A stretch of 64,000 nt of DNA, taken from positions 32,001 to 96,000 of IMG/VR virus record IMGVR_UViG_3300038679_000051. The stretch is one strand, 5' to 3'. Source of the stretch: a virus (Duplodnaviria; Caudoviricetes). This document shows positions 15,404 to 64,000 of this stretch, one piece after another (position 1 is the stretch's first letter; each line of letters begins with the position of its first letter). The position numbers and the translations under genes were made by a program. The notes under the pieces were generated by a model, which was given only the letters and a program-made list of their open reading frames with translations, ran no database searches and was not told the DNA's origin.

Positions 15404-15415
15404 GTTCTATCCTTT

Positions 15416-16375
15416 TCATTCATCATCTGCGATGGCTTGTGCCGTTGCTCGTATAAATTCATCTGCAAATAAACCAGCCCGACGGACTGAAAACAATTCT
15501 GATTCTTTGTCTTTAGATATTATAGCAATGGCGAATAACAAATGATCTATGAGGTGCGTCATTTGTTTGAGATTTTCAAATCTCACATCATCCTCGTTCG
15601 TTTCACCAACCGGATTGATGGGTCCGACCAACTTATTAACGACTTTGTTCAAATTAATGTCGTTTCCCATTATCAGCTCCTTCCAACGGTACGTAATGTT
15701 TATAATTTGCCTTTAACAATGCCATTATCAGCTCCTTCCAACGGTACGTAATGTTTATAATTTGCCTTTAACAATGCCATTATCAGCTCCTTCCAACGGT
15801 ACGTAATGTTTATAATTTGCCTTTAACAATGCCCGTAAAGCAGTTTTCTCCAGACTGTCGCGGTTCCTCTGCGTGCATCGCAAAGCACCGTCAATGCCGA
15901 ATGCAAATCCATCCATAAAAATGCGAGCATCATACCAATTTTTGAATTTAAAATCATTGATATATACGAATCCATTGTCAATCCTTATGGTTGACTTAAA
16001 CATAAGACATGTCTTGCGACACAATTCTTCGTCAACGTCGCGTGGCATTGGGTCCAACATCATTTTGCGTGGTTTTTCATTCATGTTTTGAATTCTTCTT
16101 TATCTTGCTTTCGTTCATGTAAATCAATGCAAAGTCGCTTGCCGCCATCCAACATCATCAACAGCATTTCCACTGTCCAATTCAGACACGCATTCTGGAC
16201 AGCAGACTCTGCCATTTCTAATGGCCCAACCCAGACTCTGGACAAGCTCTATAAAGCCTGTCTTTTTATATCCCGATCGTTGTACCCATACGCTGCATCG
16301 AGCACACCAAATTGTATATTCGATAGTTATTGCATGATTATATCGTTTCATGTCTGCTCTAGACATTCGTATCAA
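15416..16375 (-). other. Three hypothetical genes (15416-15670, 15755-16084, 16124-16375)
   Basis: Co-oriented ORFs lying between the direct repeats. Confidence 0.55.
15667..15833. repeat. Perfect 3 x 55-bp tandem repeat spanning a gene end, RBS and ATG
   Basis: Unit ccattatcagctccttccaacggtacgtaatgtttataatttgcctttaacaatg starts at 15667, 15722 and 15777; no spacers. Confidence 0.95.
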
Positions 16376-16397
16376 CCTCTATCCTTTTCATCGGCTG

Positions 16398-17369
16398 TCA
16401 TCTGCGATGGCTTGTGCCGTTGCTCGTATCATCTTCTGGCGATATTATTATGCGATCGTTTGGGAACTTTTTACGGAATACATCTACGATATATTCTTGC
16501 CATTTTATGGTGTGAAAATTTGGAACTGAAATGCGGTGTTCATTCTTTTCTGCGTCATAAATTGTCGTAAACAACATTTCGTTGCAATCAGAACAATAGA
16601 CAATATAAGCTGGAACGACATGACAACCTTTTGAATGCCATTCCCATAACGGAGAATGATGTGTGCAGTCGCTCATCCTTCGCTTGTCGCATATTTTACA
16701 TTTTTCGGGAGGTTCTTGTTGCATGTTATTTTCTCCTTCTTGTTTGTCTGTTTTTATTTCTTCTGTCTTGTGTGTAAATTCCACTGATTTACCCGTCGCT
16801 CTGGCGTAAGCAATTTCGCGGCGCGTGCTCTCGCCGATATATCCACCAGGATTGATTACCAACACATGAGATGCCATGTCAATCTTACGGAGATGAAGTT
16901 CGTCCAGCCGTCGTTTGTCATCGTCCGTTATGTGGTCACCAGAATGCATGAACACACCTGGTGCAAGAACGATCCGTCCGGTCATCGTTTCGCGACGATT
17001 GGCTTCGATAAATTCATCCCGGAAACGCGTTGATCCACATAGACATACCACAGTGGGTAACGTAAGACCTTTGATTGCTTCAGATTCTCCTGCCGCAACC
17101 AAAGGCAACAGCCTTTTGTCAGGCAACTCCTTAACTTTGTCGCTTAAACCCTTTTTACTCTCATTAATTGCTTCGAAGAGAGCCTTTCCATGTATGTCTT
17201 CTCGTTTGCTTGCACCCGTTTCCTCATCATGTTCGTCATTCATGACCTCATCATATGACCACCCTGGACGTTTTGGTTTATCCTTTGGTTTGTGATCGTT
17301 ACATAATTTCCACATCAATATCGTAGAACAGATTAAACAGATAATCATGAACAACAACGTTTCTGACAT
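16398..17369 (-). CDS. Multidomain protein with a DUF4406 / nucleoside-deoxyribosyltransferase-like domain
   Basis: N-terminal TM; central VVCLCGSTRF...LHLRKIDMASHVLVINPGGYIGESTRREIAYA; C-terminal Cys-rich region. Confidence 0.7.
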   Translation of the reverse strand: MSETLLFMIICLICSTILMWKLCNDHKPKDKPKRPGWSYDEVMNDEHDEETGASKREDIHGKALFEAINESKKGLSDKVKELPDKRLLPLVAAGESEAIKGLTLPTVVCLCGSTRFRDEFIEANRRETMTGRIVLAPGVFMHSGDHITDDDKRRLDELHLRKIDMASHVLVINPGGYIGESTRREIAYARATGKSVEFTHKTEEIKTDKQEGENNMQQEPPEKCKICDKRRMSDCTHHSPLWEWHSKGCHVVPAYIVYCSDCNEMLFTTIYDAEKNEHRISVPNFHTIKWQEYIVDVFRKKFPNDRIIISPEDDTSNGTSHRR

Positions 17370-17390
17370 AACATCTCCTTTTGTCAGTTC

Positions 17391-22404: not shown

Positions 22405-22887
22405 TTAAGGTGTCAACGGCCTTTGTGCTTGTGCTAAACTAAATTTGCAAATTTTCTTAACTCTCCAAATAGGAAAGAATGCAAGCAATTTACCAATATC
22501 CAATTTAAATAGTCGGAGATCAACTTGTGAAAACAAATCATATTCAATCGATAATCGTAGTTCTGGAAGCCTACCTCCATATGAAGTTCCTAATTGTATA
22601 AAGAATTGTGTTGTTGCATTATTTGATATTCCATATTCTATAACTTGTTTTGAATATAGTTCATCGATCTTAATGATTTCCGTTCCAGTTCCAAAGTTTT
22701 CTGCTCCATATAACTCGATCACTGGTGTTATTTTAATGTTTTTTATAAGAAACGGGCCTGCATTTGCGATTAAACAAAAATAACCAATACAATTACCACT
22801 ACATTGACTTGAACAAAGATGGATAGTTGGACCAAACCAATGCTTCGTTTTAAGCAATAAATCAATCGCTGGTTCGTAAGTATTCAT
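22405..22887 (-). CDS. AT-rich hypothetical protein coupled to the R-M gene
   Basis: ATGA overlap with the R-M stop; same low GC as the R-M 3' end. Confidence 0.55.
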   Translation of the reverse strand: MNTYEPAIDLLLKTKHWFGPTIHLCSSQCSGNCIGYFCLIANAGPFLIKNIKITPVIELYGAENFGTGTEIIKIDELYSKQVIEYGISNNATTQFFIQLGTSYGGRLPELRLSIEYDLFSQVDLRLFKLDIGKLLAFFPIWRVKKICKFSLAQAQRPLTP

Positions 22888-25800
22888 TTTATCATCCTTT
22901 CAAATTCTGCATCAATCCCAGCAAGGAAATTATCCTTGTCTCGTACATTGTTTTCTATCCATTCCATGTACGCTTTGACGCGTTCCGGTCGGTCATTGAG
23001 ATAAAAGTCATAATCTGGAACTGGTGCATCTTTAAAAATGTTATTTATGAGTTGATAATTTGTGCCACCTTTTTCTATTCGTTTGCGTTTTAGGAATTTT
23101 TGTATTTTCCCTCTAAACATAGTAGAGTTAAGCCACCCAAATAGCCAAATAATTTTCTCTTTAGACATAGGACCAATATGTTTCATATATCCAGTCCCTT
23201 GACCAACACACATTTTTTGCACATCAATAGATAAATCATTGCATTTGATGATTTTAAATAAGACATCAATATTATTGCTGCTCCTAATGTAGACAAATTC
23301 CGATCTGGCTATATAAAAATTTTCACCACCCAAATCAAAATAAGCACCAGAATTTAATTTATGCTGACCATCTCTGTTTCCTCTACCAGACACTTGAACA
23401 GTTCCATAATCATTCATTGTCTTAAAATTGAAACTAGGCTTCCAGTCATCAGTTAATTTATCTATAAATCTTTGTTGGAGAAGATCACTTTCTGAATATT
23501 GATATTCCTTATCATTATAAATGAGTTTATTTTCTATTACATTATTTAAACAAACCACGGTGGTTGGCAGATCACCACCACCATTCATTGAATATGAAAT
23601 TATCTTGGAATTTGATACTATCTCTCGTATTTTACCACAAATAAGTAAACGTGTCTGCTTTGCGCCTTCGGCTAATTTATTTAATAACCAAACATCGCTT
23701 ATATTTAAGGCGCATATTCCATTGTCTAAATGGTTTAAAGACCATAGGACAAATATCTGAGCAAAATCCATTTGTTCTTTATATTCAGAATATTTATATC
23801 CAATAAATCTAGTATAGGGCGGATTCCCCACGATCATATCATATTTCTTGTTTCGGATTTCTTCCGGCAACAATCCACCTTCATTTTCCGGACGACCGAT
23901 TTCGACATCAACATCCTTGCCTTCTTTGTCCTTGTTGTTCGCAGAACATTTGATCGTCTTCTTAATGACTGGTTGTTGATACCATTCTTCTTTGGTATCA
24001 TCCGGCATACAGATCGTGTTGCCCCAGTGGATGTTCAACACTTTGCCGTTATTGGTCGGTGACCAATTATCCATCAGATCAACATATTTTGTGCAGTCAC
24101 CACCATGTTTTAGGACCGTCTCGAAGTGTGCCGTAACTAAACGGATTTTGCAAGCATAATACATCGGTTCTAGGATTTCGATGCCGTGGAGACAATGGGT
24201 CAGAATGTGGTATGAGCGTTCAATTGGATCAACGATGGATGTGCCTTCTCTCATCAATTTGTGATAGAGGAAGATCAAGAAATTGCCGTCGCCGCTGGCT
24301 GGATCGCAATAAGTAAGGTTCAAAATGTCAACGTCTTTAGGAAGATATTTGAAAGCCAAATCCACGGTCTCTTTTACTACAAATTCCGGCGTATAGATTG
24401 TGCCATACTTCTTCCGACAATCATCGGAGAAGACGCCGCGCTTTGCTTTCCGTGCTTTGTCGATCGTCTTCAAGTAATCCTCATCCCTCTTGTAGCGTCG
24501 CCATGCTCGGTCGTCGTATTCTTTCAATCCGTCTTTAAACCACGTCTTAATTTTACCAAATACTTTATCTTTAGCATCCGGATCGGCAATGAACAAATTT
24601 AATAAATCAAAGACCGCCAATTCATGGATTTCAAGCGGTCGGTCCAAATCATCCTTTACTTCTTGGAAATACTTTTCAACTTCCATTTTAGACGTTTTTA
24701 AGCGTCTCGTTAGACTATTTTGTCCTTTGGGTTCTTCGTCCTTTGCACCGAACATGTCGTCAATTCTGATCATTTCTTTATCTAAACCATATTCATCGAC
24801 CAACGTATAAAGCAGATCTTTATATCTCTCTGTATAGTCTTTCGATTCAATCAACACGCGTGGTATGACGATTGCGGCGTAGGGTTTGACGAATCGGACA
24901 TGTTGTTCTGGTTTTAGAGAACCCTCATAAAGTGCCTTCCTGTCGTCTCTTTGAAGACGACAGGACCGACCGACACCCTGCTTAAAACCGGTGTCGGACA
25001 TTGATCGAAGCGGCATGAACGACGTAATGCCAGGGACGTCAATGCCTTCCGTCAACATGTCTACATATAGAATGATGGCTTTGTCGTCTTCCTTAAGGTT
25101 TTGGAGATTTCTCAAAAACGGGTCTTTATGACGAGACGGCAGCATCCAATCATCGGACGTCCCTTGAATCACCCAACCATCGGAATATACGCCGACGTTG
25201 GAGGACAATGCCATGACGTGGACGTCTGTTCTGGTCTTGTGGAACTCCTGCAATTCCTTACTGTTCAATATTCCCTTCAACGTCTTTTGATCCTTTACGG
25301 TGATCAACATTTTTGCGCCGATTTTGGTCGGTTCTTTGCTCTTTAGAAACAACCATTCTTCATGTCTGGCAAATGTAAGCATCAAACATCTGGTTATTTC
25401 GTCATAGGCATCTACTTTTACTTCTGCTTCCTTGTTGCTTTCACCTAATGCTTCCACGATGTGTAAGGCTGGCGGCAACATTTCACCGGCGTCAATCATT
25501 TCACGCGGCGTCTTTCTAAAGATGATTTTGCCAAATTTCTCCTCATTGTTCATACCATAACCTTTTTTGCCACCTTCAGTTATTTTGGGTGTGGCGGTAA
25601 ATGAATAAGAGAAATTGCCGATTGACGTAAATTTACCAAATTCGTCAGAAACCATATGATGAGCTTCATCATTGAGTTGAACGTCCAATTCGAAGCCCAA
25701 TTTCTTGGCTTCGTCCAGTTGTTCAGCAGAATGATATGTAGATGAGATAACCAACGGTTTATTGTTGGCTTGTGCTCGTTTGTATACTTCATAAATTTCC

Positions 25801-33907: not shown

Positions 33908-33910
33908 TTT

Positions 33911-35293: not shown

Positions 35294-35661
35294 CAATTTG
35301 AGGATGCGTCGAACGGGCCGATTTCATATTATGATTTTTTCTTAGTTGGTTTTCTCTTGGTTTTTCGTTTAGTTTGTGCGGATCGCATCATGGCCGTATC
35401 ATATCCGGCCATGATGGCATTGGCAAACCAACCAATCATCAATCCGCGCTGGTCCTGCACTATGCCTTCCTTAGTGAAGACGCTAAATCTTTTGCAGAAT
35501 TCCGAAGTCCATTTCTGTGCATCCAACGTGTGCGGCCAACGTTGTTTCTCCGTTTCGATCATCACTTTTATCCACCCATCTGGACCACATTGCTTTTTGC
35601 GCTGCCGTTGCTTTTTCATGTCTTGTTCCTTTCACAATTTGAGGATGCGTCGGGTGGGCCG
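35294..35661. repeat. Direct repeat pair flanking gene 35329-35619
   Basis: caatttgaggatgcgtcg-NNN-gggccg at 35294-35320 and 35635-35661. Confidence 0.85.
35329..35619 (-). CDS. Hypothetical protein
   Basis: AAAGGA RBS; DAQKWTSEF...MIGWFANAIMAGYD. Confidence 0.65.
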   Translation of the reverse strand: MKKQRQRKKQCGPDGWIKVMIETEKQRWPHTLDAQKWTSEFCKRFSVFTKEGIVQDQRGLMIGWFANAIMAGYDTAMMRSAQTKRKTKRKPTKKKS

Positions 35662-43790: not shown

Positions 43791-45807
43791 TCAATGATTT
43801 ACCAATGATTTACCATCGAGTTCCCAACCGACGTTGTTCTTAGACAAAATGGATTCTCTTCCATTAAGAAGCAATTGTACTTTATGGACCGCATGTTGAT
43901 CAGCCAATGATATGATCGGCCATATTGCCGAATGCTTGAACATAATGGGTCTGGTTGTCTCGGCGCATGCCGTTTTGTCGGGCATGATGCGCATTCTTAC
44001 CCAACCAGTCTTTAACATGTCGCTCATGTTTAGGCCGTGAGCGATTGCCCACTCATTGTGAATGACATCCTTGAAGGTGAATGCCTTGTCATCGGGGTTG
44101 ATCCAAATCCCAATTCCTGCCTCTTTGAACAATTTGTTCTTCGCCATTTCATCGATGCGCATGTCCAGCCATTCCTTGAAATCCATGTTTCATTCCTTTA
44201 TCGTTTGTCCATGTTTTAACAACCATATCTGAAATTGGCACACGTTAACGTTCCACCCCTTGTCGCCCGTTGCCTTGGCGTATGCCTTACGGCACGCAGA
44301 AACCCAGAGAATGTAACCGGTCATTTTACCTCCCGGCCATTTCAGGTCATCATCTTGTAAGCACGCTTCCGGATCATCTGGGAATCCACGAGCTTTGCAG
44401 TAAGTGAGATAAGCATGCGTGAATTCCTGTTTCACCATCACTGGTAAATCCTAGGCACGTTGTTAGCCATGTCAAGTTTGAAACATTTCATTCGTTCGGT
44501 CAGGGGAACGGAATCATGTTGCTTCTTTCGAAATTCAACGATGTGTTTGTTGCGCTCTTTCTTGGTAAGGAATGGTCCGATCAATTTGCCAGCAGATAAG
44601 ACGTAGAAAGAGCCAGCCTTAACGTTTGTCTTAACGTTTGCGTGTACTATTAGACGCCAACCCAACATGTTGAGCGCCTCCAATGCAGCATCCTGCACGT
44701 CAATTGCTTTGACTACGAATGAATCATTTGCATCATTGTCGTTTTGGATCGTGAATTTTCTCATCTTTTTCCTCCCCATTTTTGCTTTCGGTTTGTGACA
44801 CCGCTTTGAAGACGTGCTCATGGACTGCGGCATCGGATTCAAATTTACCGCAAGCGTCGCAACGCTCAATGCGGACGCCATGGACGTCGTTTTCAACGAG
44901 CAAGTAACCACGACTCTCACACGCTTTGCATCTTTTATGCGCCATTTTCGCTCTCCTCCTTCTGCCGGTCCGTATCGGCAACGAGGTCGCCGCTCCGTGC
45001 GGGGAAAGCGACGTTGACGATGGCCTTCAATTGCTCGACGGTCAGCGTCTTGACGTCAATCTTCTCGAATTTACGAGTCAGACATTGTTTGAGATACCGA
45101 CATTTAAGATCTTCAGTTTCGACGCGATAAATCACGCGATCGTAGCTTTGACCGCCAACTATCCTCACTTGATCATATGTGTAGATTTCACGATAGAATT
45201 TGATGGGCGGCTGCGGCTTCATCCTTTCAACGACGGCTTGCTTTTCCGTCGTACGCGAAATCACGAACTTCGTCAGCCCCTGATAAAAATTGTCGGCGTA
45301 AACGACCATGCCGGCTTCAAGCTTTGCCATTTTCATCTCCTAATCTCTTTCCGAGTAAATTCCGTCCGTGGTCGGTTGTGATGCTTTATTGCCTAACAAT
45401 TTGCGGACAAATTTCAACGTTTTTCGTTCTTTAGGCGAACATTTCAATTTCATTTCATCCGAGATCGAGGATTGTGCAACGTCGAGCAGATTCAGAAAAT
45501 CGTCGTAGATTTCAGCCGGGATTGTAATCGTTTTGGTCTTCATTCTTTCCTACTCCTAACAGCTAAAGAGAATGTGTCGGTGCGTCTTAGGATTGTCTTC
45601 GCAACGACAGGGATTCGGTTGACCACTGTGAAACTTTTTATCTTTGGAGACTTTCCATCCACTGTTCACCGGTTGTTCCGAGTTAAGCCTTCTCGTCGCT
45701 TCCCTATTCGTCAAACTCGTACAGACGGAAGCATAACAGATTCCTAAACTGTAGATGGTAAAATCCTCGGCCTTCGTTGTCTTGGTCATCATCGTTTTTG
45801 TCTTCAT
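43791..45807 (-). other. Run of small hypothetical genes (43791-44186, 44190-44441, 44438-44764, 44733-44945, 44935-45336, 45340-45543, 45556-45807)
   Basis: Abutting co-oriented ORFs with RBSs; 44733 has two CxxC motifs. Confidence 0.6.
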
Positions 45808-45893
45808 TTGATCATCTCCAAAAATTGTTCCTCGCTAATCACTTTCGTGCCATACTTCTCAGCTTTTTTGGTCTTGCTACTTTGGCTTGACGG
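45804..45893 (-). pseudogene. Orphan second copy of the ligA 3' end (BRCT C-terminus, 29 codons + TGA)
   Basis: Encodes PSSQSSKTKKAEKYGTKVISEEQFLEMIK*, versus ligA PSSQSSKTRKAAKYGTKVISEEQFLEMIK (46670-46756): 27/29 aa identical and 20/87 nt different by hand count. Confidence 0.9.
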
Positions 45894-46642: not shown

Positions 46643-48565
46643 TCAAGTGTACTCTGCAGCGCTGGACAATTTGATCATCTCCAGAAATTGCTCCTCACTA
46701 ATCACTTTTGTGCCGTATTTTGCGGCCTTGCGGGTTTTAGATGATTGGCTTGACGGGTCCGCTTGCACCAAGTGGGTCACCGTTGGACCGACTTCATCCT
46801 TCACCGCCCCACCGTTTTCAAGGACCAATTGCTGCGCCGCTGCCCGTTTCATACCCGACGGCAACGCTCCCGTAAACACCATGACGAGATTCGCCAGTTT
46901 CCCGCCGCTCGTCGCCGCCGGCGTCTCCTCCGCCGCGTCGTCCGCGTCACCGACGACCACGCCGTTTGCCAGCAGTTTGTCGACGAGTCCGCTACACGCC
47001 GCCAGTCCGGCCACGACGACAGGACCAATGCCGCTGCCGAGCGCAAGCGATTCTTCCGTCGTCATCTCACGCCATTCCCTGAGCGTCTTCTTGCCGCATT
47101 TCTTGATGAACTCTTCCGCCGCCCGTTTACCTAGGAAGCGGATGCCCAATGAGCCAATGAATTCGGCCAAGGTCAAATTCTTTTTCTTCTCAATCTCAGC
47201 AAGAATTGCTTGTGCTCGTTTGATGCCGAGATTGCCGTTGCCGACGGTCAGATTCGGCAACCTTTCCATGTCGAGGACGTAGAGATCGGCTGGGTCTTTA
47301 ACCAGACCGGATTCATACAACGCCGCTTCCACTTCCGGACCGATGAACTTGATGTCGTTCGACTTAATCCAGCGACGGACTTTACGGACGGCCTTACCGT
47401 CGCACTCGTCATTTTGACAAACCAATGCTGCACCATCGCGAGCCACCGCACCGCCACAGACTGGACAGACCGTTGGGATTGTAATTGGCGTACCACCCTT
47501 ACAGGATACTAACTTAGGGATCACATCCCCTGCTCTGATGACTTCGACCTCACCGCCGATCCCTAAATTGAGACGCTTAATCTCATCTTCATTGTTGACT
47601 AAGACGGAAGTGACGGTTACGCCGCCAATGTTGATCGGGTCAATTTTACCAACGGGGACGATGCTGCCGGTGTGACCTACCGACCATTCGATGGAACGTA
47701 GAATTGATTTTCCGCCCATCGGTGGGAATTTGTAAGCCATTTGACCCTTGGGGTTCTGGTCATGAAACCCAAGTGCCTTTTGCGTTGCAATGTCGTCAAA
47801 CCGCAGCACCAATCCATCCACTTCGAACGGCAGTGTGGCCCGTTCGTTACGTCGTTTGTCATAGACGGTTTGTATCAGACCCAATGTGTCTGCGCCAGTA
47901 ACCAATGCGCCCTCATCGACGTCGAATCCCAATCGAGCGAGATATTGTTGGTTATCCCGTTCGGTGTCGCAGCATGATTCACCGTCGCACAGCACGTCGT
48001 ATGCCTTTAGACGCAACCATTCACAACCATCACCGCGTTTGTTGCGCAATGCACCGTTACCGGCATTGCGGGGATTGGCACAATCGGCGAAATGCGTTTT
48101 AAATTCGTCTTGGTGGAGAATTGCCTCACCACGTACGTAACCGGTGAATTCTTCATTCAACCGTTGGGGAATGAATTTGGATTTCTTGACGTTTTCGGTC
48201 AGGTCCTCGCCGGTATTTCCATCCCCACGACTGATGGCCTGTACCAGTTGTCCCTTCTCGTATTTAAGAGACAATGAGCAGCCGTCGAACTTCCATTGGA
48301 CGAGAATTTTCGTACCAGGGGTTTTGTCCAACCAGCGCTTGATTTCTTTCTCATCCTTGACTTTGTTGAGACTGCCCATTGGGATGCTATGCTTGATCTT
48401 GGTAAAGAGGTCGGAGACTGGTGCCCCAACCGTTTTAAAGAACGGGTCGTTGGGATGTTCAGCCTTCGCCTCGTCATACAGACGGTCGTAATCGGCGTCT
48501 GACATGACTGCTTTGTCATTGTAGTAAGCTTCGGCAGCCTTCTTGAGCGCATCAATCTTGGTCAT
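46643..48565 (-). CDS. ligA: NAD-dependent DNA ligase
   Basis: YYNDKAVMSDADYD, KFDG, SRGDGNTGEDLT, VRGE, DGLV, AYKFP, VGHTGSIVPV, RAGDVIP, Zn finger CPVC...C...C, HhH motifs and BRCT (VFTG). Confidence 0.97.
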   Translation of the reverse strand: MTKIDALKKAAEAYYNDKAVMSDADYDRLYDEAKAEHPNDPFFKTVGAPVSDLFTKIKHSIPMGSLNKVKDEKEIKRWLDKTPGTKILVQWKFDGCSLSLKYEKGQLVQAISRGDGNTGEDLTENVKKSKFIPQRLNEEFTGYVRGEAILHQDEFKTHFADCANPRNAGNGALRNKRGDGCEWLRLKAYDVLCDGESCCDTERDNQQYLARLGFDVDEGALVTGADTLGLIQTVYDKRRNERATLPFEVDGLVLRFDDIATQKALGFHDQNPKGQMAYKFPPMGGKSILRSIEWSVGHTGSIVPVGKIDPINIGGVTVTSVLVNNEDEIKRLNLGIGGEVEVIRAGDVIPKLVSCKGGTPITIPTVCPVCGGAVARDGAALVCQNDECDGKAVRKVRRWIKSNDIKFIGPEVEAALYESGLVKDPADLYVLDMERLPNLTVGNGNLGIKRAQAILAEIEKKKNLTLAEFIGSLGIRFLGKRAAEEFIKKCGKKTLREWREMTTEESLALGSGIGPVVVAGLAACSGLVDKLLANGVVVGDADDAAEETPAATSGGKLANLVMVFTGALPSGMKRAAAQQLVLENGGAVKDEVGPTVTHLVQADPSSQSSKTRKAAKYGTKVISEEQFLEMIKLSSAAEYT

Positions 48566-48800
48566 TCTTCAGTCTCCTTAGATTCTTTCGTCTCATGCTC
48601 TTCACGCAGTTCGTCCAACAATCCCGTGATTTCATCATATGAAAATCCGGTCTTTCTAGCGAGTCGATACGTCAACTGATGATACTGATTGCCTGGCAAT
48701 GATTCCAGGGAATCAACCGGATCGTCACCAAGAACGTCAATCTTTTTCAATTCAGCGAGCATGACGTTCTTCTTATCAATCTTAGTCATTCTGTCTCCTT
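48551..48800. repeat. Direct repeat of RBS + MTKID start flanking gene 48562-48789
   Basis: atcaatctt(g/a)gtcattct...gtctcctt at 48551-48579 and 48775-48800. Confidence 0.7.
48562..48789 (-). CDS. Hypothetical protein
   Basis: AAGGAG RBS; starts MTKIDKK. Confidence 0.6.
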   Translation of the reverse strand: MTKIDKKNVMLAELKKIDVLGDDPVDSLESLPGNQYHQLTYRLARKTGFSYDEITGLLDELREEHETKESKETEE

Positions 48801-50115: not shown

Positions 50116-51608
50116 TTCTCCTTTAGATCTTCTGGGTTGACGTCAATGACAATTTGATCGGCTTTATGCGATTTGCCAGGCATTTCTTTTTTCATGTTTG
50201 TGACGGATGTTACGTATGGCAGACATATGTCCAAAGATGGCGCTTCCAATCGCCATTGCAGTAAAATTTCTTTGCCGGATGGAAGGACCAAATTCACGTC
50301 TCTCGCTTTATTTCCTAATTTGATTTTTATCATCATCGGTCTCCTTTGGCATTACTTACTGATCTGTAAAGATCGACGTAATCACCGAATTCTTCGTCAA
50401 AGATTTCAATTAAGTTATTGTAGTTGCCGGCCATCATCCGTCGCCGTATGTCTTCCCAATTATTCAAATTCAATTCTTCACATAATTGTTTGGCTATGCC
50501 GAGTAAACAAAAGGCATTGCCTTGTGGACCGCTTAAATCGATTTCAGTCTTTCTCGACGGCGGTTTTCCGCTGTGAATCATCTCGTCCTCCCTCTTGCTG
50601 CTGCATCTAAAAAATCACGAATGTCATTTATTGACGACGATTCTAGCAAATTTACTAACATTTCTACGTCAAAGCTCGTCGTATTAGGCACGTATCTGAG
50701 ATAAACAGAGACGTTGAAATTCTGGTAGAATTTGATGCCAATGGATTTACGCTCATCGAGATAATGGACGAACCATAACATTGATGGATGTTGATAATGA
50801 TCAATGACGTTGAATTTGAGATGTGATAATTCATCTACCAATGACTGAAATGGTTCTATGTCCATCCGTCTCTCCTTTCTTAATATTGAAGAAGTTTGTT
50901 CTCTTTAGCATTCCACAACAATGCTTGTATGATTATTTCTTTTACGTCTGGGTTGTAAATCGTTCCTGGATTGAGTGAATGTAACATCAGATGTTGTGTC
51001 CGATGCTTCCCTTTAAGATTCGTTATTCCGGGTTCGTAGAAATTTCTAGCGCCAAAAACGACCCACCATCTATTGCTGACAAATGCCATGCTTGGACGTC
51101 CCCCGACTCCTGTGACATATATGTCACATTTAGTCGGGTCGAGATCAAGCATCAACTGTAGATTATAATTATACGCATCTAAAATGACATCATATTTGAC
51201 GGCTATGATTTCACATTCCTTGTTGCATCCAGCCGTCATTCTTGGCGTTTTCACTAATTCGATTGGCATCGTTGCAATTAAACGGACATGCTTTGGTTTA
51301 ATGTCATATTCAACTACTCTATTGATTTTGTTATGTTCAAAGTTTTTTGGACCGCTTACCACTTTTCTTTCTCCTTGACTTGGCGTTCGTCATCCAGTGC
51401 ACGTTTTATCTCCTAACACATAGACGTCGGCTTTATGTGCCGACGTTAAAATCAGCATACGTTCTTTGCCATCAGCGTCAATTATGATCTGTGAACGACA
51501 CAAATCGCCGTAGTCGTTCCACTCCTTACCGTGCCGGATTCGAAACGGTGCCGGACAACTTTCAAGTAAGGCTTTTGCTTTTTTGAAGCTTTTGATTTTC
51601 CTTCTCAT
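50112..51608 (-). other. Run of small hypothetical genes (50112-50336, 50333-50581, 50578-50865, 50880-51362, 51390-51608)
   Basis: Co-oriented, with ATGA coupling. 50333 carries IDLSGPQGNAF, a motif common in phage proteins. Confidence 0.6.
51383..51415 (-). pseudogene. Stub of an MHW-cap gene start (RBS + GTG CAC TGG ATG ACG AAC GC)
   Basis: 33 nt identical to 62141-62173 (start of protein 10); no repeats follow. Confidence 0.8.
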
Positions 51609-56230: not shown

Positions 56231-56604
56231 CGACGTTCCCCTTTTGGTTGACAGTATTTGTCGATTACGCCCTTTAATTTATCTTTAGGCGTGGCCGTAA
56301 TTTTTGCAATCAATCCCGGATTTTGCCTCAACAACGACAACAGCATTCTAGCTTCTCTGCGACGATTGTTTTTCGCCTGTTTGCGACATTCTTTACACAA
56401 TTCGGATTGATAGAAACATGACGTGAACGATTCATGCTTCTTTTTGCATTTCTTGCAGATTAGCGTGCCAATCTGCTTGTTCGATTCTAAGTCGTATCTC
56501 AATGATCCGACGACGAAATGTGGATATTTCTCTTTTAATTCCGTTTCATCCATCCTGGCTGCGGCTACTCGTTCCAACAGCATCTGCATTTCTTTTTTGT
56601 CCAT
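56227..56604 (-). CDS. Zinc-finger protein (paralog of 57383-57667)
   Basis: KYPHFVVGS...NKQ...CKKC...ESFTS...CKECRK. Confidence 0.65.
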   Translation of the reverse strand: MDKKEMQMLLERVAAARMDETELKEKYPHFVVGSLRYDLESNKQIGTLICKKCKKKHESFTSCFYQSELCKECRKQAKNNRRREARMLLSLLRQNPGLIAKITATPKDKLKGVIDKYCQPKGERR

Positions 56605-57322
56605 TTTTCTCCTCCGTGTTCTCGATCCACGTTCTGATCATGCTGTTCAGATGTCTGTGTTCGTTTGGCATTATGCGTATGAATTCCGAAAATTCATCGA
56701 CGTACAGATCTCTTTTGTTGGCCATGTTTTCAGCAACTATCATTTGTGCTTCGAGCAGCGTTTGTTTGTCTTTGAACCGAAGTTTATGTAACAACCACGG
56801 CGATCGACTTTTTTTAATTGCGATCAATTTCATGTCATCACCCATGGCATAACCGTAGTCTAAGGGTAATTTTGGGTTAACGTTGATCGCGATGATTGTC
56901 AACTCCCTGATTTGTTCTTCCGTATAATTCAAATGCTTGCAACTATGCTTGCATTGATTTAGGAAATTACTGACACATTTTTCGGATGCGGCATGCATCG
57001 CTGCATGGCGGAATTCAAAATTATCTAATTCTGATGGGATTGTAATGTGACCTCTATTGACGTTCGTGTATGTCTGTAGAATCAATTCCGGCACTTTGCA
57101 TTTCATGTTATAAATCCATGTTCCATTTATGAGAGAATATTTTTTATGTCCAGTGTCGGCATGTTCAATCAAATTAGCCATCAATTTATGATCCGTCATT
57201 CGTAAGACGTTTTTGTCGACTTTTCGCATTGCTTGCAATATGTCTTCGACGATTTCCCGCGTCGCTAATGATGATGCAATAAATTCCTTGAACGGCATTG
57301 GTCTCCACTTCGGTTCATTCAT
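56546..57322 (-). CDS. Divergent MHW-cap homolog with helical repeats
   Basis: ATREIVEDILQAMRKVDKNVLRMTDHKLMANLI aligns by eye with VTKEQLNDVIQAVRKIDDNHKNMEDEMIVEQLL. Confidence 0.5.
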   Translation of the reverse strand: MNEPKWRPMPFKEFIASSLATREIVEDILQAMRKVDKNVLRMTDHKLMANLIEHADTGHKKYSLINGTWIYNMKCKVPELILQTYTNVNRGHITIPSELDNFEFRHAAMHAASEKCVSNFLNQCKHSCKHLNYTEEQIRELTIIAINVNPKLPLDYGYAMGDDMKLIAIKKSRSPWLLHKLRFKDKQTLLEAQMIVAENMANKRDLYVDEFSEFIRIMPNEHRHLNSMIRTWIENTEEKNGQKRNADAVGTSSRSQDG

Positions 57323-57341
57323 CGCTTCTCCTTCCAATGAG

Positions 57342-57373
57342 CATGGGTGGCGAGGTAAGCCTCGCCACCCATG
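57342..57373. promoter_or_regulatory. 14-bp perfect inverted repeat directly upstream of an RBS
   Basis: CATGGGTGGCGAGG-TAAG-CCTCGCCACCCATG; related element at 58447-58481. Confidence 0.65.
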
Positions 57374-57382
57374 TCGTTATCG

Positions 57383-57990: not shown

Positions 57991-57992
57991 CA

Positions 57993-59332
57993 TTACATAA
58001 TTTTTATTTTTTTCGATTTAGATAAGAATTTGGCAAAATTCCTACTGAAATCAGTAGGCTTGCAGAAGCATTCTGGAGAGAAGACAGATTTCTCACCAGT
58101 GAGCAAGTAACCTATGACTATTTGATAATCACCATAATGACGGTTATTTAACACGACCAACATGACGTTGCATCCGTCTACAATTCTAGCTTCTATTTTA
58201 TTGCCGAATTTATTTGGCCAAATGCAGTCTTCAATGTTGATCTTCCGTCCAAATTTCTTAATGATTTGCTCATTGACATACGTCTCTTCCATGCGTACAA
58301 TCGCAGCCTTAAATTCGTCTATTGCGTTTGGCATGTCTGGTGCAGACATTTCGAACGATGCGTCGCCGATGGTTATTTTGACGGGCACTCGTTTTATATC
58401 GAGTTCATTAAGCTTGTGTTTTAATTGGTCAATCATCGTTTCTCCTTCCATGGGCTGGGCGGCGAGGCTTACTCGCCCAGCTTCGTCATTCTGGCTCACC
58501 CATCATGAAAATTCTTGCATTCTTACCTTGACTCCGTAGCACGCTTAATCGTGCTTTTGCTTTTTCTATTTCGGTAACCGGAAACGTTAGGGCATCCAAC
58601 TCCTGGTAACAACCCTCATAGCAGGGATTACCCTTGGGGTTTTTTGTGATTGCGCAGATTAAAAAGCGCGTCTTTAACTTCATTGTCGTGGGTTTGGGGT
58701 GCATTTCTTGTTCATCCAATTCCGTGAACGGTCCATAACGTTCCTGCTCAAGATAGGCGTTGACTAAATCGTGTTGTTCATCCACCTCCTTCTGTGTCAT
58801 CGGCTGGATTGGATTAACGGGGATGCCGGATCGCATTAATCGTTTGCCGGTCGTTGGGTCGTATGAATAAACCATCTTGATCTCCTTATAAACGTGGATT
58901 GAAACTACCATGTGCTTGTTTTTGTATCTTGTAGTGGTGTCGAAACTGGGTGAGAGCAGTCGTAGCCGCAATTCAGCCAGATATTGTTCGACGAAAAGCA
59001 GACGTTCATGTCCTTGTAAATCAAAAACGAACAAAGTCAATCTGGGGCTACGTTACCGCCAAGCGTGCCATGATCACCAAATTCGATGTCGGCGAAACGT
59101 TGAGCGACCTCACGGATCTTGGTGATTCTTTTCTTTGTCTTACTATTCATCTTTTGCTCCTTTTTGTTTTCTTTTTTCCGACATATTTAAGCTTAATCGC
59201 TCCACCTACCGTAGCGGATAGGTCTCGCGGCACGCGTCTCCAGACACTATCTGGGACGGTCTTACCGATTTCAGACAAAATCGTCCCAATGGATTTCACT
59301 TTCTTTTTCCGCTTCCCGCATGGTTTTTTCAT
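57993..59332 (-). other. Four small hypothetical genes (57993-58436, 58486-58875, 59037-59150, 59147-59332)
   Basis: RBS-preceded starts; 59037-59150 is a 37-aa ATGA-coupled ORF missing from the track. Confidence 0.5.
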
Positions 59333-59343
59333 TTCTTCCTCCT

Positions 59344-60663
59344 TTATGAGGCGTAGAACTCCTGAGGTAGCAGGCTCATGTCCCACATATTCTTCCACCC
59401 CCGGCGTCCGGTATCCCGCCAGATGACCAGCTTCTTCTCGGCGTACGGAGCGAAGACTTTCCGACATTGGGCCAAGAATGGCACTTCCCATGCCGTCGTC
59501 ATCTTGGTCACAATCTCGGACCCAACCCTCTCGGCCAGCTTCTTGGGGATGTCCCCATAGAGGCAGGTCAACCCGACGCAAATCTCGTCGGCCAACCCAT
59601 ACGCCTCGGCGAACGTCCCATGTTCTATTGCCATGCTAGAGATGTCCGGCATACATGGACAGACGTTGACCACCAGTTTGATTTTCCTCTGTCTGTAGAT
59701 CTCCCTAATCGCAGCAATCCTCTGTTCGTTGGGCGGCGCGTTTTGTTCCAGCCGCTTTCGCATCTCCTCGTCGAATGGAGAGAGTGCCATGTGGATGGAC
59801 GGATTCGGGAGCTTCGATATGAGGTCGAGATCACGAACCACAAGTGGTGATTTGGTGAAGATCCCGACCTTGGTCACATCTTTACCGCCGACAAGGTGAC
59901 GTAGGATGGTCTGCGTCGCCAGCGCCTTCTCCTCGCAGGGCTGGTACGGGTCTATATGGGTGCCGATAACCACCCTTCCCTTGAGGTCAAGTGGTAAGCA
60001 GGAAAAATCCTTGGACACACAGCCGTAGCAGTAGACGCAGCCGTGGGAGCAACCAGTGTACGGGTTATATCCGCGATCGAAACAGGAGAATCCGGTGGTC
60101 CTCGCATCCGTTGCCCCTTGCACGGAGGCGGTCGACCCCAGAAGCACGGCCTCGTAATTCTTGATCTCGAACACGTCGGTCTGGGCGTATTGATTGGTTA
60201 CACCAGCCAGTAGGGCGTGCATCGCCTCGTCGTGAGTCTCCACGGCCCTGACCGTCCGTTTGGACACCTCGCCTGTCTTATTGAAAAAGATCTTGATCAC
60301 CAGGAACGTTCCGGTCCGAATGGCGTGTTTCTTCTTGTCGCCCCGGCCCATGGTAATGGTAATCTTCTGATTGCCGGGGACTTCCAGCGTCCGATAGATT
60401 GCGCCATCCTTGGAAATGAAAGCGGCATTCCGCGTAGTGTGCCAGTGGAAGTTGCCATCGTACGTCTCGGAGAGCGCTCCCTCTCCGCCTTTCTGGACGG
60501 AGACCACGACGTTACTGATCTTCCCCGATCCGCCCCGGTCCTCGTTCCTGGTGCTCTGAATCCCGACGATCCAGTAATCGCCGTCCTTACTTTGCATCTT
60601 GCCGAAGTCCAGCCCAGACTTCATGTTGGTACCCTGGAAGAGCGGAGTCACGTCTTTTTCCAT
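59344..60663 (-). CDS. Radical SAM protein (SplB/Rv2578c-like) with an unrecognised ~170-aa N-terminal domain
   Basis: YNPYTGCSHGCVYCY (CxxxCxxC), GTHIDPYQPCE, FTKSPLVVRDLDLI; GC about 58-65% in sampled lines versus about 38% in the flank. Confidence 0.85.
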   Translation of the reverse strand: MEKDVTPLFQGTNMKSGLDFGKMQSKDGDYWIVGIQSTRNEDRGGSGKISNVVVSVQKGGEGALSETYDGNFHWHTTRNAAFISKDGAIYRTLEVPGNQKITITMGRGDKKKHAIRTGTFLVIKIFFNKTGEVSKRTVRAVETHDEAMHALLAGVTNQYAQTDVFEIKNYEAVLLGSTASVQGATDARTTGFSCFDRGYNPYTGCSHGCVYCYGCVSKDFSCLPLDLKGRVVIGTHIDPYQPCEEKALATQTILRHLVGGKDVTKVGIFTKSPLVVRDLDLISKLPNPSIHMALSPFDEEMRKRLEQNAPPNEQRIAAIREIYRQRKIKLVVNVCPCMPDISSMAIEHGTFAEAYGLADEICVGLTCLYGDIPKKLAERVGSEIVTKMTTAWEVPFLAQCRKVFAPYAEKKLVIWRDTGRRGWKNMWDMSLLPQEFYAS

Positions 60664-60672
60664 TTCTTCCTC

Positions 60673-61471
60673 CTATCCGTTGTACGCCGTCTGACAATCC
60701 TCATCGCAGCATCGTTGCCCGCGTTCTGTCGGTTCAAACCAATTTCCACACCAATCACATTGTCGCGGATTTTGCCATGATGGACATCCGGTCTCATGAC
60801 AAAAAACGCCATTTATCATGACTGCTTCACAATCATCGCATTTCTTAACCTTCCGTGGCTTAATTCCGGGCATTCTCTCCTTTCTTGTAGTATGGATTGA
60901 CAAACGTTCCTCATTTCTGCAGGTAGCCAGAAATCCTATCCAATCACGAATGTGTTGAATGCTGTCCAAATCATGAAGATTCGTCTGAATTTCAAACTCA
61001 TCACCTTTCAATCTATAATGCATCCATACGTTTCCATTTTCATAAAAGATGATATAAACGTTCGCCAATGGTACGCCGAACGGCGATTCTAATTTAAATG
61101 ATGCCGTGGCTACTTGAGTGGCTACTTGAACGAATTTAATGCCCAAGTCTTTGGTCAATTCATCGAGGATTTTCTGATACATGGCCTCAATTTCCTGACG
61201 TTGGTCGTCTCTGCTTCTTCTTTTTGTCTGATTCATCTATGAATGGCATTACATTTCCACTGTTAATATCATCCTTGATGTTGATTTTTATATGGTGATC
61301 CATTAACCAATCCACCAAGAACAATAGACCAATCCACCAAGAACAATAGTCGCAATTCCATTCCTTTCCATTTACAGTAAAGCCACTTCTTGACTTCCTT
61401 GTGAAAACTATCTTAAATTCACGAATGTCCGGTTTTTGCTTCTTTTGCTTCTTTTGTTTTTTCATTTTCAT
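60673..61471 (-). other. Two hypothetical genes (60673-61182, 61187-61471)
   Basis: 60673 ends in a Cys-rich cluster (CDDC...CHETGC...CDWC...CCDEDC). Confidence 0.55.
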
Positions 61472-61499
61472 TCTCCTCTTTCTGCGTCCACGGAGCAGA

Positions 61500-61521
61500 C
61501 GACCATCAACATTGATGGTCG
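61500..61521. promoter_or_regulatory. 22-bp palindrome abutting the middle repeat
   Basis: CGACCATCAA-CA-TTGATGGTCG. Confidence 0.55.
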
Positions 61522-61548
61522 TCATTCCCTCAATTTCCTGACGTTTCT

Positions 61549-62160
61549 CTACTTCTTCTTTATGGAAAGTGATTCTATTTCAAATTTAGTTGTATCGACA
61601 AAATCTATTACCTCCGTCATATTTGCTGCAATTGCTGCATCAATCGCTGCAGTGCAAATTTCCAACGTCTGCTTTTTAACAAATTCAAGCGCCATCCCGC
61701 ATTTCTGCACTGCTGCCAGACATATTTCCGGCGTCTGCTTTTTTACATATTCAAGCGCCTGACCATTTTGTTTTACTGCCGCCAGACATATTTCAGGTGT
61801 CTGTTTTTTGACATATCGAAGTGCCCAACCATTTTCTTTTACTGCTGCCATACATATTTCCGGCGTCTGCTTTTTTACATATTCAAGCGCCTGACCATTT
61901 TGTTTTACTGCCGCCAGACATATCTCTGGCGTCTGATCTTTGACGAATTTAATTGTATAACCATTTCGTTGTACTGCTGCCATGCATATTTCAGGAAATT
62001 GATCGCCCAAATCATGGAGTACGCCCCACAAGCTTATTTCATTGTTCAACAATCTCTCTACAATCGTTTCATCCTTCATCTGTTTATAATCGTCAATCTT
62101 CTGCACTACTTGAATTACGTCGCTTATTTGTTTCTTGCTTGCGTTCGTCATCCAGTGCAC
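61549..62160 (-). CDS. MHW-cap / DUF4116-repeat protein 10
   Basis: GTG start, MHWMTNASKKQI cap plus about 5 repeats. Confidence 0.85.
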   Translation of the reverse strand: MHWMTNASKKQISDVIQVVQKIDDYKQMKDETIVERLLNNEISLWGVLHDLGDQFPEICMAAVQRNGYTIKFVKDQTPEICLAAVKQNGQALEYVKKQTPEICMAAVKENGWALRYVKKQTPEICLAAVKQNGQALEYVKKQTPEICLAAVQKCGMALEFVKKQTLEICTAAIDAAIAANMTEVIDFVDTTKFEIESLSIKKK

Positions 62161-62170
62161 GTTTTATCTC

Positions 62171-62830
62171 CTATGCCAGAATGCAGATCTTGGTCTTGAA
62201 TTTCCTATCAACATATTTAAGTGCATCACCATTTTGTCTTACCGCTGCCATGCATATTTCTGGCGTCTGTTCTTTGACATATTCAAGTGCTGCACCATTT
62301 TGTCGTACTGCGGCCATGCATATTTCTGGCGTCTGTTTTTTGACAAACCGAAGTGCATCACCATCTTGTTGTACTGCTGCCAGGCATATTTCTGGCGTCT
62401 GTTTTTTGACATATACAAGTACCCAACCCCATTGTTGTACTACTGCCATACATATTTCTGGCGTCTGTTCCTTGACATATTTAAGTGCATCATTATCTTG
62501 TTGTACTGCTGCCATGCATATTTCTGGTGTTTGTTCCTTGACGTGTTCAAGTGCTGCACCATTTTGTCGTACTGCCGCCATGCATATTTCTGGTGTCTGT
62601 TCCTTGACATATACAAGTACATGACCCCATTGTTGTACTGCTGCCAGGCATATGGCTGGAAATTGATTGTCTAAATGTTTAAGCACATCACTTAAAACCC
62701 GAATCTCATCATCCAATAATTTCTTAACGATCGTTTCGTCCTTCATCTGTTTATAATTGCCATCAAACTTTCTCACTGCTTCAATCACATCATTCAATTG
62801 TTCCTTACTTGCGTTCGTCATCCAGTGCAT
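62171..62830 (-). CDS. MHW-cap / DUF4116-repeat protein 11
   Basis: MHWMTNASKEQL cap plus about 6.5 repeats. Confidence 0.85.
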   Translation of the reverse strand: MHWMTNASKEQLNDVIEAVRKFDGNYKQMKDETIVKKLLDDEIRVLSDVLKHLDNQFPAICLAAVQQWGHVLVYVKEQTPEICMAAVRQNGAALEHVKEQTPEICMAAVQQDNDALKYVKEQTPEICMAVVQQWGWVLVYVKKQTPEICLAAVQQDGDALRFVKKQTPEICMAAVRQNGAALEYVKEQTPEICMAAVRQNGDALKYVDRKFKTKICILA

Positions 62831-62869
62831 GTTTATCTCCTATTGGACCAATTTGTCTCTTTTGTTATT

Positions 62870-64000
62870 TCATTCCCTCAATTTCCTGACGTTGGTCGTC
62901 TCTACTTCCTCATCGTCTGAGGCTGGTGTGGCGTTTTCCTTGGCCCAATTTGCCATTGTCTCCAATTGCTTGGCGCGTGATTTGGCCAATGGTGTGAAGC
63001 TGTCCATTTCTGCCAAGATGTGTTCCTTGGTCAATTGGCGATCACCGCCCATGTGATAAGCATGAAACAATCCACCGATGACGGCTTGTTCGATTTCTGC
63101 GCCACTGTAATCCCTAGATTGTTTGACCAATTCATCAACGCCGACCTTCTTTGGATCGCGACCGTGTTTGCGGATTTGGATTTCAAAAATGTCCTTACGT
63201 TCCCTCTCAGACGGCAGACCGACGAAGAAGATTTCGTCGAAGCGACCTTTTCTGAGCAATTCATCTGGCAACAAATCAATTCTGTTCACTGTGGCCATGA
63301 TGAAGGCTTGTGATTTCTTTTCCTGCATCCACGTAATGAAGGTGCCGAACACCCGTTTGCCGGTGCCGCCGTCAGTCTCACCGCTACCGCCCATTCCGGC
63401 GAATGCCTTGTCCAATTCATCGATCCAGACGATGCAGCGACCGACGGCATCGATCGTGTTGATGGCCGTCCGCACGTTTGCTTCCGATTGACCGACCAAC
63501 GACCCAAATACTTTGCCGACGTCAAATCGAATGAGTGGGACGCCGATTAGGTTTGATGCTGCTTTGGCGGCGAGGCTTTTACCACACCCTGGCAGGCCCA
63601 CCAGCATGACGCCCTTCGGCGACGGCAGACCATACTGTTTCGCCTCTTTGGTGAAGCATGGTTGGACGCGATTTTTGAGCCATCGTTTCAAGCGGTTCAA
63701 ACCACCCACGTCTTCAGGTTTCTCAACCGCCTCGAAGATTTCCAAGATGCCGCTCTTTTTGACCGCCAATGATTTTTCTTTCATGACAATTCGACTGATC
63801 GGTAGATCAAGATTCAATTTCTTTTTGTCGATTGCTGCCTTTGCGATTGCGTTTTCCGCTTCACCAATCGTCAGCCCCATAGCTGATTGGATGATCATGT
63901 CTTTTTCTTCTTCCTCGATCTTACCGAAAACGTTCTTATTCTCAGACATCAGATTATCCAAGACTAACAGGATGTCTTTCTCTGATGGCAAATCGAATTC
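62870..64000 (-). CDS. AAA+ ATPase, Ycf46/SpoVK-like (5' end outside the window)
   Basis: DVGGLNRLKRWL, GVMLVGLPGCGKS (Walker A), VWIDELDK (Walker B), ATVN, LLRKGRFDE (SRH); frame open to the window edge. Confidence 0.92.
   Translation of the reverse strand, partial: EFDLPSEKDILLVLDNLMSENKNVFGKIEEEEKDMIIQSAMGLTIGEAENAIAKAAIDKKKLNLDLPISRIVMKEKSLAVKKSGILEIFEAVEKPEDVGGLNRLKRWLKNRVQPCFTKEAKQYGLPSPKGVMLVGLPGCGKSLAAKAASNLIGVPLIRFDVGKVFGSLVGQSEANVRTAINTIDAVGRCIVWIDELDKAFAGMGGSGETDGGTGKRVFGTFITWMQEKKSQAFIMATVNRIDLLPDELLRKGRFDEIFFVGLPSERERKDIFEIQIRKHGRDPKKVGVDELVKQSRDYSGAEIEQAVIGGLFHAYHMGGDRQLTKEHILAEMDSFTPLAKSRAKQLETMANWAKENATPASDDEEVETTNVRKLRE

Follow-up and report, generated by a model that had tools for sequence, protein, structure and literature searches.

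Duplicated gene junctions in the plastic arm of a RecA-encoding jumbo phage: probable scars of recombinase-free gene insertion

How can a phage genome whose genes are packed end to end take in new ones without breaking those already present? This question is raised by a 64-kb window of DNA (bases 32001-96000 of the virus record IMGVR_UViG_3300038679_000051; coordinates below are positions in this window unless marked as genome positions), in which short direct repeats lie on both sides of small blocks of genes. The record is 320,399 bp long with direct terminal repeats and is therefore that of a jumbo phage, and in the window almost every gene beyond about 5.4 kb is on the minus strand; these genes are small and densely packed. 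The initial annotation of the window had listed eight repeat sites and an array of three 55-bp units, every one of which was found where it had been placed, and had seen in them a possible integrase-free system for acquiring gene cassettes. We put at about 0.6 the probability that the repeats are instead recombination scars, left where DNA was inserted, replaced or duplicated in tandem on a small scale, with no dedicated recombinase, within the plastic and ORFan-rich arm of a phage that encodes RecA.

Enrichment and nature of the duplicated junctions

Read on the coding (minus) strand, the repeats are pieces of gene boundaries, made up of stop codons, ribosome-binding sites (RBSs) and start codons. 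Exact local repeats of at least 12 nt number 1601, against about 120 in Markov-3 simulations, and most of this excess consists of the 66-nt repeats of 17 DUF4116 paralogs. Because these paralogs dominate the raw count, an RBS-matched control was run on the junctions: 462 genes were predicted over the whole genome with a scorer of codon usage and RBSs, and windows from -45 to +25 around the predicted starts of non-paralogous, same-strand genes were compared by their best ungapped match (+1/-2). Scores of 13 or more were reached by 5 of 6000 pairs at least 15 genes apart (0.08%, with a maximum of 14), as against 9/373 pairs one gene apart, 4/349 two genes apart and 4/350 three genes apart; at distances of four and five genes there were none (0/339 and 0/335). 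Thirteen pairs at one to three genes apart score at least 15, a value that no far-apart pair attains, so that the supposed enrichment at junctions holds far above RBS-matched chance. Isolated local repeats agree, both copies falling in junction windows for 6 of 25 where 0.18 would be expected (p = 2e-8). The signal is restricted to the ORFan-rich minus-strand arm (genome 8-117 kb), with 14 matches there and a single one in the remaining 203 kb (117-320 kb).

An identical pipeline applied to the first 100 kb of phage T4 gave scores of at least 15 for 4/157 adjacent pairs and of at least 13 for 5/158 pairs two genes apart, the matches including the start regions of ipII and ipIII (score 40) and early-promoter motifs. 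The rate of look-alike neighbouring junctions is comparable in the two phages (14 matches among 519 near pairs in the arm, 9/471 in T4), so that it would seem to be a footprint that plastic regions of large lytic phages have in general.

The repeats are DNA-level copies made by rearrangement, not conserved peptides or regulatory motifs. This follows from copies being read in different frames. The 32 nt of the first site (15423-15454 vs 16398-16429) end a gene of 323 amino acids (aa) as ...TSNGTSHRR-stop and an 84-aa open reading frame (ORF) as ...IRATAQAIADDE-stop; copies 1 and 3 of the 3' end of an AAA ATPase gene (site 7, below) are likewise in different frames, the second frame being the end of a 112-aa ORF; and a 30-nt repeat at genome positions 106626/106962 is read in two frames. 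Identity drops from about 100% to random at sharp repeat borders, and a search for paralogs of the flanked genes found none at E = 1e-3 and, at E = 0.5, nothing above chance level. The placement of the repeats at gene junctions around one to three genes was confirmed. Together, the sharp borders and the lack of paralogs argue against tandem duplication of a gene block followed by divergence, in which the flanked gene and its neighbour would be old paralogs whose junctions alone stayed similar. The genome is rich in tandem paralogs (the 17 DUF4116 genes, and genome 120320/120662 and 275066/275767), and several additional junction repeats do belong to DUF4116 or tandem paralogs; however, the repeats with the features of tandem gene duplication are all DUF4116-related, while the flanked genes at the eight sites lack a paralog even at E = 0.5 and their repeats are read in different frames. 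We regard this origin as very improbable. Several extra repeats prove to be no more than the ends of DUF4116 paralogs.

Selection on functional cis-elements, such as operators of a translational repressor or processing sites, might also keep junctions similar, and the repeats do overlap ribosome sites and start codons. Two GC-rich copies of a strong hairpin followed by an RBS and ATG, at 57315-57374 and 58429-58480 before genes 56546-57322 and 57993-58436, have such an appearance; their stems differ in sequence, both pair well, and they are the only structure-bearing repeat seen that resembles the PeSLs (promoter-plus-stem-loop motifs) discussed below. Against this idea, no motif and no RNA fold is common to the sites (z-scores of the repeat copies range from -1.5 to +0.6), the position of the repeats relative to the start codon varies from -45 to +24, and out-of-frame coding ends are included. 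No promoter-like or terminator-like site coincides with the repeats, and promoter-like sites are no commoner than in shuffled sequence. Conservation by function therefore deserves very little weight as an account of the repeats.

Nor are the repeats products of assembly. Other contigs of this phage, found through exact-protein look-ups and cluster members and representing the same strain only, are 100% or 99.97% identical to the window over site 2 (one copy), sites 3 to 6 and part of site 7 (L067-L069, L071, L072 and L074), and a 138-kb Joint Genome Institute (JGI) contig, L073, contains both copies of site 1. L073 differs from the window by four single-nucleotide polymorphisms and by one 55-bp unit instead of three, and by nothing else; the copy number of this array is the sole structural difference among the other assemblies found. 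The 109-aa form of the ORF concerned, whose C-terminus needs at least two 55-bp units, is present on three contigs and the one-unit, 106-aa form on one, and short-read mis-resolution in either record could account for the three units here and the one in L073. Over the other sites, assemblies made independently, from different samples and with different assemblers, are identical; no repeat is as long as a read and all are set in unique sequence, so that we give next to no credence to an artefact, which had been named as a way in which the initial interpretation might fail. One contig from Logan (L070) stops at 16400, within the 32-nt block of site 1, which we infer to be a break of the assembly graph at the repeat, Logan assembling with k=31.

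The sites and their cargo

All the repeat copies described in this section, the 55-bp array included, lie on the minus strand. The pair at site 1 (15406-15454 and 16378-16429) consists of a 14-nt and a 32-nt block, each 100% identical between copies, with a spacer of 3 nt in one and 6 nt in the other. Its upstream copy (16378..16429), where the 323-aa gene 16398-17369 natively ends with its stop, continues with the RBS block and is now followed by ORF 16124-16366. The last 32 nt of the gene and the RBS block recur 972 bp downstream, with three ORFan genes between. This downstream copy (15406..15454), comprising the 32-nt copy of the 3' end, the variable spacer and the 14-nt RBS block, lies directly before the DUF4116 gene 14699-15403, and ORF 15416-15670 ends inside it in another frame.

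Within the same block lies the 55-bp array (15667..15833), a perfect threefold tandem repeat of a junction formed by the 3' end of ORF 15755-16084 and the RBS and ATG of ORF 15416-15670, with a period that is not a multiple of 3. Other high-identity tandem repeats across the genome are mostly intragenic and have periods that are multiples of 3; gene 49471-50112, for instance, contains a near-perfect, in-frame tandem duplication of 57 bp (49582-49693).

Site 2 (35294-35311 and 35635-35652) is intergenic and brackets a 96-aa ORF, its copies being identical at 18/18 positions, or at 23/26 when extended. One copy (35294..35319) lies between the stop of ORF 35329-35619 and the start of the DUF4116 gene 34651-35283, and the other (35635..35660) upstream of the RBS of that ORF. 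At site 3 (45527-45545 and 45791-45809, 18/19 identical) the ATG and first five codons (MKTKT) of a resident 67-aa gene, 45340-45543, form one copy (45527..45545). The other (45791..45809) is the N-terminus of the 83-aa ORF 45556-45807, which thus opens in frame with its neighbour's MKTKT and has its own Met-Met start directly after.

Sites 4 and 5 lie at the two ends of the gene for an NAD-dependent ligase, ligA (46643-48565). The copies of site 5 (48551-48568 and 48775-48792) are identical at 17/18 positions and also have the RBS in common, with a 3-nt indel. The first (48551..48579) contains the ligA RBS, ATG and first five codons (MTKID), and the second (48775..48800) is a copy of this start region that now opens the 75-aa ORF 48562-48789. 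This ORF is otherwise unrelated to ligA; the idea that it is a relic of an old ligA 5' part was rejected, similarity beyond the five borrowed codons being at the level of shuffled sequence.

Site 4 is of a different kind. Its two members (45806-45893 and 46669-46756) had been listed as a direct repeat like the others, which was not borne out: over 88 nt they are only 77% identical, and are better described as two diverged ligA ends, the product of a replacement with a leftover. The intact copy (46669..46756) covers codons 604-632 of ligA, and the other (45806..45893) is an untranslated, diverged 3' end of 29 codons. Despite 20 nucleotide differences, 27 of the 29 codons give the same residue, and for two consecutive serines one copy has TCA-TCT where the other has AGT-AGC; when 20 substitutions were placed at random, none of 20,000 trials gave as few as two residue changes. 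A stop stands before the downstream piece, no start codon lies in it, and its end, ...EMIK-stop, overlaps the ATG of the next gene. In a relative with a 235-kb genome (L012) the ligase ends four residues past the matching F (...QFKEWLK-stop), while the intact ligA of the window runs eight more codons. The synonymous bias of the differences, the missing start and the L012-like ending point to the downstream piece as a relic of a diverged ligA allele. On this evidence, at least the present 3' end of ligA came from a diverged relative, through recombination that also brought in two small genes. The GC content of ligA (53%, vs 42% in the arm) is weakly foreign. In L012 itself the NAD-ligase is split (L012:13085-15901) into an N-terminal ORF of 383 aa and a C-terminal ORF of 293 aa, and between the halves lies a 286-aa ORF on the opposite strand that may be an inserted mobile gene.

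Site 6 (59324-59343 and 60655-60674, 19/20 identical) holds the one clearly foreign cargo. One copy (59324..59343), directly after the stop of a radical-SAM-like gene (59344-60663), comprises the RBS and ATG of the 61-aa gene 59147-59332 and five bases more; the other (60655..60674) is the matching start region at the head of the radical-SAM-like gene. This gene has a GC content of 56%, and of 73% at third codon positions, vs 42% and 43%, and a codon-usage score near zero. The foreign composition starts directly after the borrowed start region and ends at the gene's own stop, directly before the second copy. The gene gives the impression of having been acquired recently from a foreign source. 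Identity to its nearest homologs is about 50%, and among the distant ones some bear the label photolyase-like radical SAM or 'DNA repair photolyase'.

At site 7, the last 40 nt or so of the AAA ATPase gene and an ATG occur in three copies, which bracket two DUF4116 genes and then a 112-aa ORF. Copy 1 (62871..62911) is where the ATPase gene natively ends; the ATG after this 3' end is now useless, opening an ORF of only two codons. Copy 2 (61523..61563), after the two DUF4116 genes, has a 6-nt deletion, and its ATG starts ORF 61187-61525. This ORF ends in another frame inside copy 3 (61180..61220), and gene 60673-61182 probably starts at the ATG of that copy (61182-61180). ORF 61187-61525 also contains a perfect 22-bp tandem duplication (61306-61349) and may be frameshifted or decaying, because the length of the duplication is not a multiple of 3. 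Outside the range covered by the initial annotation, further sites occur at genome positions 8370/9210, 100319/101025, 106626/106962 and 114311/115038.

About half of the junction-repeat sites adjoin a DUF4116 gene. The 17 paralogs of this family are dispersed on the same strand and built of 22-aa (66-nt) repeats; those in the window are at 12558-13175, 14699-15403, 27038-27541, 33464-35283, 38811-39377, 48782-50112, 51854-52387 and 61549-62830, and the others lie beyond it. Twelve of the 17, along with a truncated remnant at 51402, have a conserved start region and N-terminal leader (MHWM..KEQLxDVI). The remnant's start region (51383..51415: RBS, GTG and 6 codons) matches 62141-62173, at a distance of 10.7 kb, in 33/33 positions, and contains the end of the 72-aa ORF 51390-51608.

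As for the flanked genes in general, none matches a Pfam family above its curated cut-off and no mobility domain was found in them by Pfam. Ten of 11 tested resemble their neighbours in composition, with a mean GC of 0.425 (neighbours 0.424) and a codon score of 0.181 (neighbours 0.186). The notion that the cargo as a whole is foreign in composition was accordingly rejected, save for the radical-SAM-like gene and, weakly, ligA. Elsewhere in the window, a 1286-aa protein (22884-26744) with matches to ResIII helicase, MmeI_Mtase and Eco57I looks like a fused restriction-modification-type enzyme in a phage.

Insertion and the alternatives to it

Genes in the arm are packed stop-to-start, the RBS of one gene lying inside the end of the previous gene. 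Because genes abut or overlap in this way, a newcomer would survive only if the boundary it entered was duplicated, one copy preserving the end of the upstream gene and the other the start signals of the downstream gene. Reading the junctions on the coding strand upheld the earlier observation that both the upstream ORF and the downstream RBS and ATG are kept intact. The newcomer would start at the copied ATG and first codons (as at sites 3, 5, 6 and 7), and its last ORF would run into the copied 3' end in another frame and stop there (sites 1, 4 and 7, and genome 106626). Such events could take place by illegitimate or short-homology recombination with selection as the filter, and would require no dedicated enzyme or common site. 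One possible route, suggested by the 55-bp array, is that a tandem duplication of the junction comes first as a harmless spacer, with later insertion of DNA between the copies; other routes would be a pair of illegitimate joins or the integration of a circle by a single crossover, and all would give the same product. With the 55-bp junction triplicated here and single in L073, junction duplication appears to be ongoing.

A precedent for insertion is found in T4, where mobC lies between nrdD and nrdG and is flanked by 21-nt copies of the nrdG start (L075:42896-42916 and 43518-43538). The stop of nrdD overlaps an ATG that now starts mobC with the first seven codons of nrdG; mobC stops within the second 21-nt copy, in another frame, and nrdG is next. 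In phage Kha5h (L077) the coupled nrdD/nrdG junction is present once and mobC is absent, so that the site is empty. Only 29 of 835 records matching a T4 nrdG-mobC-nrdD query hold at least 80% of it in one place, and the two-piece matches of other T4-like phages, with 59% coverage, suggest an empty site there too. In T4, then, the duplicated-junction footprint marks the insertion of a gene into a junction of overlapping stop and start. The resemblance to the window extends to the duplicated junction, the borrowed first codons and the stop inside the second copy. They differ in that the cargo in T4 is an HNH homing endonuclease able to promote its own spread, whereas neither HNH nor GIY-YIG domains were found here.

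From this geometry and the T4 analogy we infer that each site of the window probably arose by insertion. Insertion with duplication of the junction is thus the best-supported part of the initial annotation, given the geometry, the local enrichment and the precedent of mobC and Kha5h; a dedicated cassette system is not supported. The spacing of backbone genes is in keeping with this: the AAA gene is 7.8 kb from 54155-55060 here and 1.7 kb from its homolog in L012, so that the sites seem to lie in expandable stretches between backbone genes.

Several points count against insertion as an account of every site. Most flanked genes are native in composition and are not obviously recent imports. The repeats of sites 2, 3, 5 and 6 are only 18-20 nt long. 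Site 1, with its two perfect blocks and a 3-nt replaced by a 6-nt spacer, is unexplained by a single clean duplication, and the three copies of the AAA junction require repeated events at one place. The gene calls are the output of a home-made caller. Finally, no empty-site allele of the eight sites was found, the best relatives having only 36-53% amino-acid identity: nothing in the phages collection matched, amino-acid identity reached no more than 53% when viral contigs were scanned with gene 16398-17369, with ligA and with the AAA gene, and a metagenome scan with ligA reached no more than 36%.

Some of these points would suit a process without any insertion, in which the flanked genes were always present and short patches were copied between neighbouring junctions. 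Ectopic gene conversion, templated break repair on RBS-like microhomology, or small tandem junction duplications that have since drifted could each do so. The effect is strictly local (at most three genes), the flanked genes are native, a junction duplication without cargo exists and varies in copy number (the 55-bp array), and site 1 is patchy. However, matching geometry at T4 mobC comes from a true insertion, the radical-SAM-like cargo is foreign and bounded by the repeat copies, the ends of native ORFs would need repeated and harmless replacement by out-of-frame patches, and the ligA relic cannot be a recent patch. We think patch copying unlikely by any of these routes.

The other alternative is closer to what was initially proposed: an active, integrase-free exchange of cassettes, in which small circles made of a gene and a junction copy integrate and excise by RecA-type single crossovers, in the style of PeSL mini-circles. 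The final structure is indeed that of a Campbell-type single-crossover product, and the three AAA-junction copies suggest a site that can be reused. The absence of an integrase from the window was confirmed and extended to the whole genome, profile searches giving zero matches to Phage_integrase (PF00589) and Resolvase (PF00239) and zero to RVT_1 (reverse transcriptase). HNH (PF01844) and GIY-YIG (PF01541) also have zero matches in the genome, LAGLIDADG and other endonuclease families not having been searched genome-wide; control genomes were positive in all these searches. Among the recombinase families searched, RecA alone was found, as a strong homolog outside the window (genome 180747-181520; Pfam RecA, 355 bits). 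Repeats of 18-20 nt, such as those of sites 2, 3, 5 and 6, are poor substrates for RecA, a point that speaks against such exchange. In its favour, PeSL mini-circles have been found experimentally, and less than 50 bp of homology is enough for recombination of the T4 type (PMC2839356).

The repeats themselves are the main obstacle to cassette exchange. As had been noticed at the outset, they differ from site to site with no att sequence in common: far-apart junctions never score above 14, and no motif is shared between sites. Since the repeats are site-specific there is no portable att site, and a circle from one site cannot enter another; nor is there a ready account of how a foreign gene would first gain its junction. 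The lack of promoters, terminators or RNA structures at the repeats, and the ligA pair as a relic of allele replacement, also speak against exchange. The other assemblies of this phage, near-identical and all carrying the inserts, showed no gain or loss of a cassette, no empty allele and no circle, so that the proposed gain and loss of translation-ready cassettes through small circles is unsupported. We hold active exchange to be distinctly unlikely.

A bolder version would make the arm an actively exchanging field of cassettes, with RecA recombination between duplicated junctions releasing and recapturing single genes as circles, and with the start region of the DUF4116 genes, some 90 nt long, as a portable linker. 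The start region of the 17 genes would then be analogous to the PeSLs or to the capsid-targeting leader of T4 internal proteins; the DUF4116 leader does resemble the common leader of the T4 internal-protein cassettes, by analogy only. This we consider quite improbable, and we return to insertion with duplicated junctions as the preferred reading.

Relation to known kinds of insertion

If the repeats are such scars, they record, with unusual density and statistical clarity, how a phage genome with tightly packed genes takes in others and leaves their neighbours unbroken: the boundary exists in duplicate, the start signals that serve the newcomer's expression are borrowed, and often so is the stop at which it ends. 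At least eight sites fall in the window alone, with more in the 110-kb arm. The neighbour-junction test is simple and recovers both ipII/ipIII and mobC in T4, and it could be used to gauge how frequent recombinase-free insertion is across phage genomes.

Two familiar kinds of insertion call for features that were looked for here and not found. Integrons and prophages depend on a tyrosine or serine recombinase and a common att or attC site, and neither such a recombinase, in the genome-wide searches, nor such a site was found. Free-standing homing endonucleases of the T4 mob/seg type would bring an HNH or GIY-YIG domain, and these were not found in the genome.

A closer likeness is that to the PeSLs and the internal-protein loci of T-even phages (PMC2839356; Comeau et al. 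2014, PMC4122927; Repoila et al. 1994, as cited there), where, as here, ORFans are bounded by short direct repeats in hyperplastic regions of large lytic phages, and where general phage recombination is invoked with no dedicated recombinase. The location is similar too, the signal here being confined to the 8-117 kb arm, which is expanded relative to L012, and bounding ORFans. PeSLs, however, are one conserved promoter-plus-stem-loop motif present at many sites, which makes cassettes portable (Arbiol et al. 2010, PMC2839356), whereas each site of the window has its own repeat, made of coding ends and translation signals, without promoter or terminator and with no such motif recurring from site to site.

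The repeats of the arm also recall insertion with long target duplication. That phenomenon was reportedly treated by Nobusato et al. in 2000 (Gene 259:99). In it the direct repeats match a target that was present once, often span a translation start or stop and leave the target genes intact; the cases described are restriction-modification genes in bacterial chromosomes, whose repeats exceed 30 bp and whose empty sites have been proven (Furuta et al. 2010, PMC2853133). The features in common with the window are an insert without a mobility gene, direct repeats that are site-specific and variable, and targets whose starts or stops are spanned and remain intact. Repeats of more than 30 bp occur here at site 1 (32 + 14 nt), site 7 (41 nt) and genome 100319 (at least 42 nt); the 88-nt pair of site 4 is set apart from these lengths as the relic of a diverged allele. 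The differences are that the host is here a phage, that the cargo consists of ORFans, DUF4116 genes and a radical-SAM gene, and that half of the repeats are only 18-23 nt long.

Lastly, the mosaicism described by Hendrix and colleagues, as far as it is summarised in PMC2839356, involves illegitimate recombination at gene boundaries and the accretion of morons. As in the arm, joins made at random are filtered by selection, and the breakpoints that survive are at gene boundaries; what differs, relative to that summary, is that duplicated boundaries are here the rule. The finding thus reveals no new molecular machine and no dedicated cassette system, and is best seen as a dense new instance of a known footprint.

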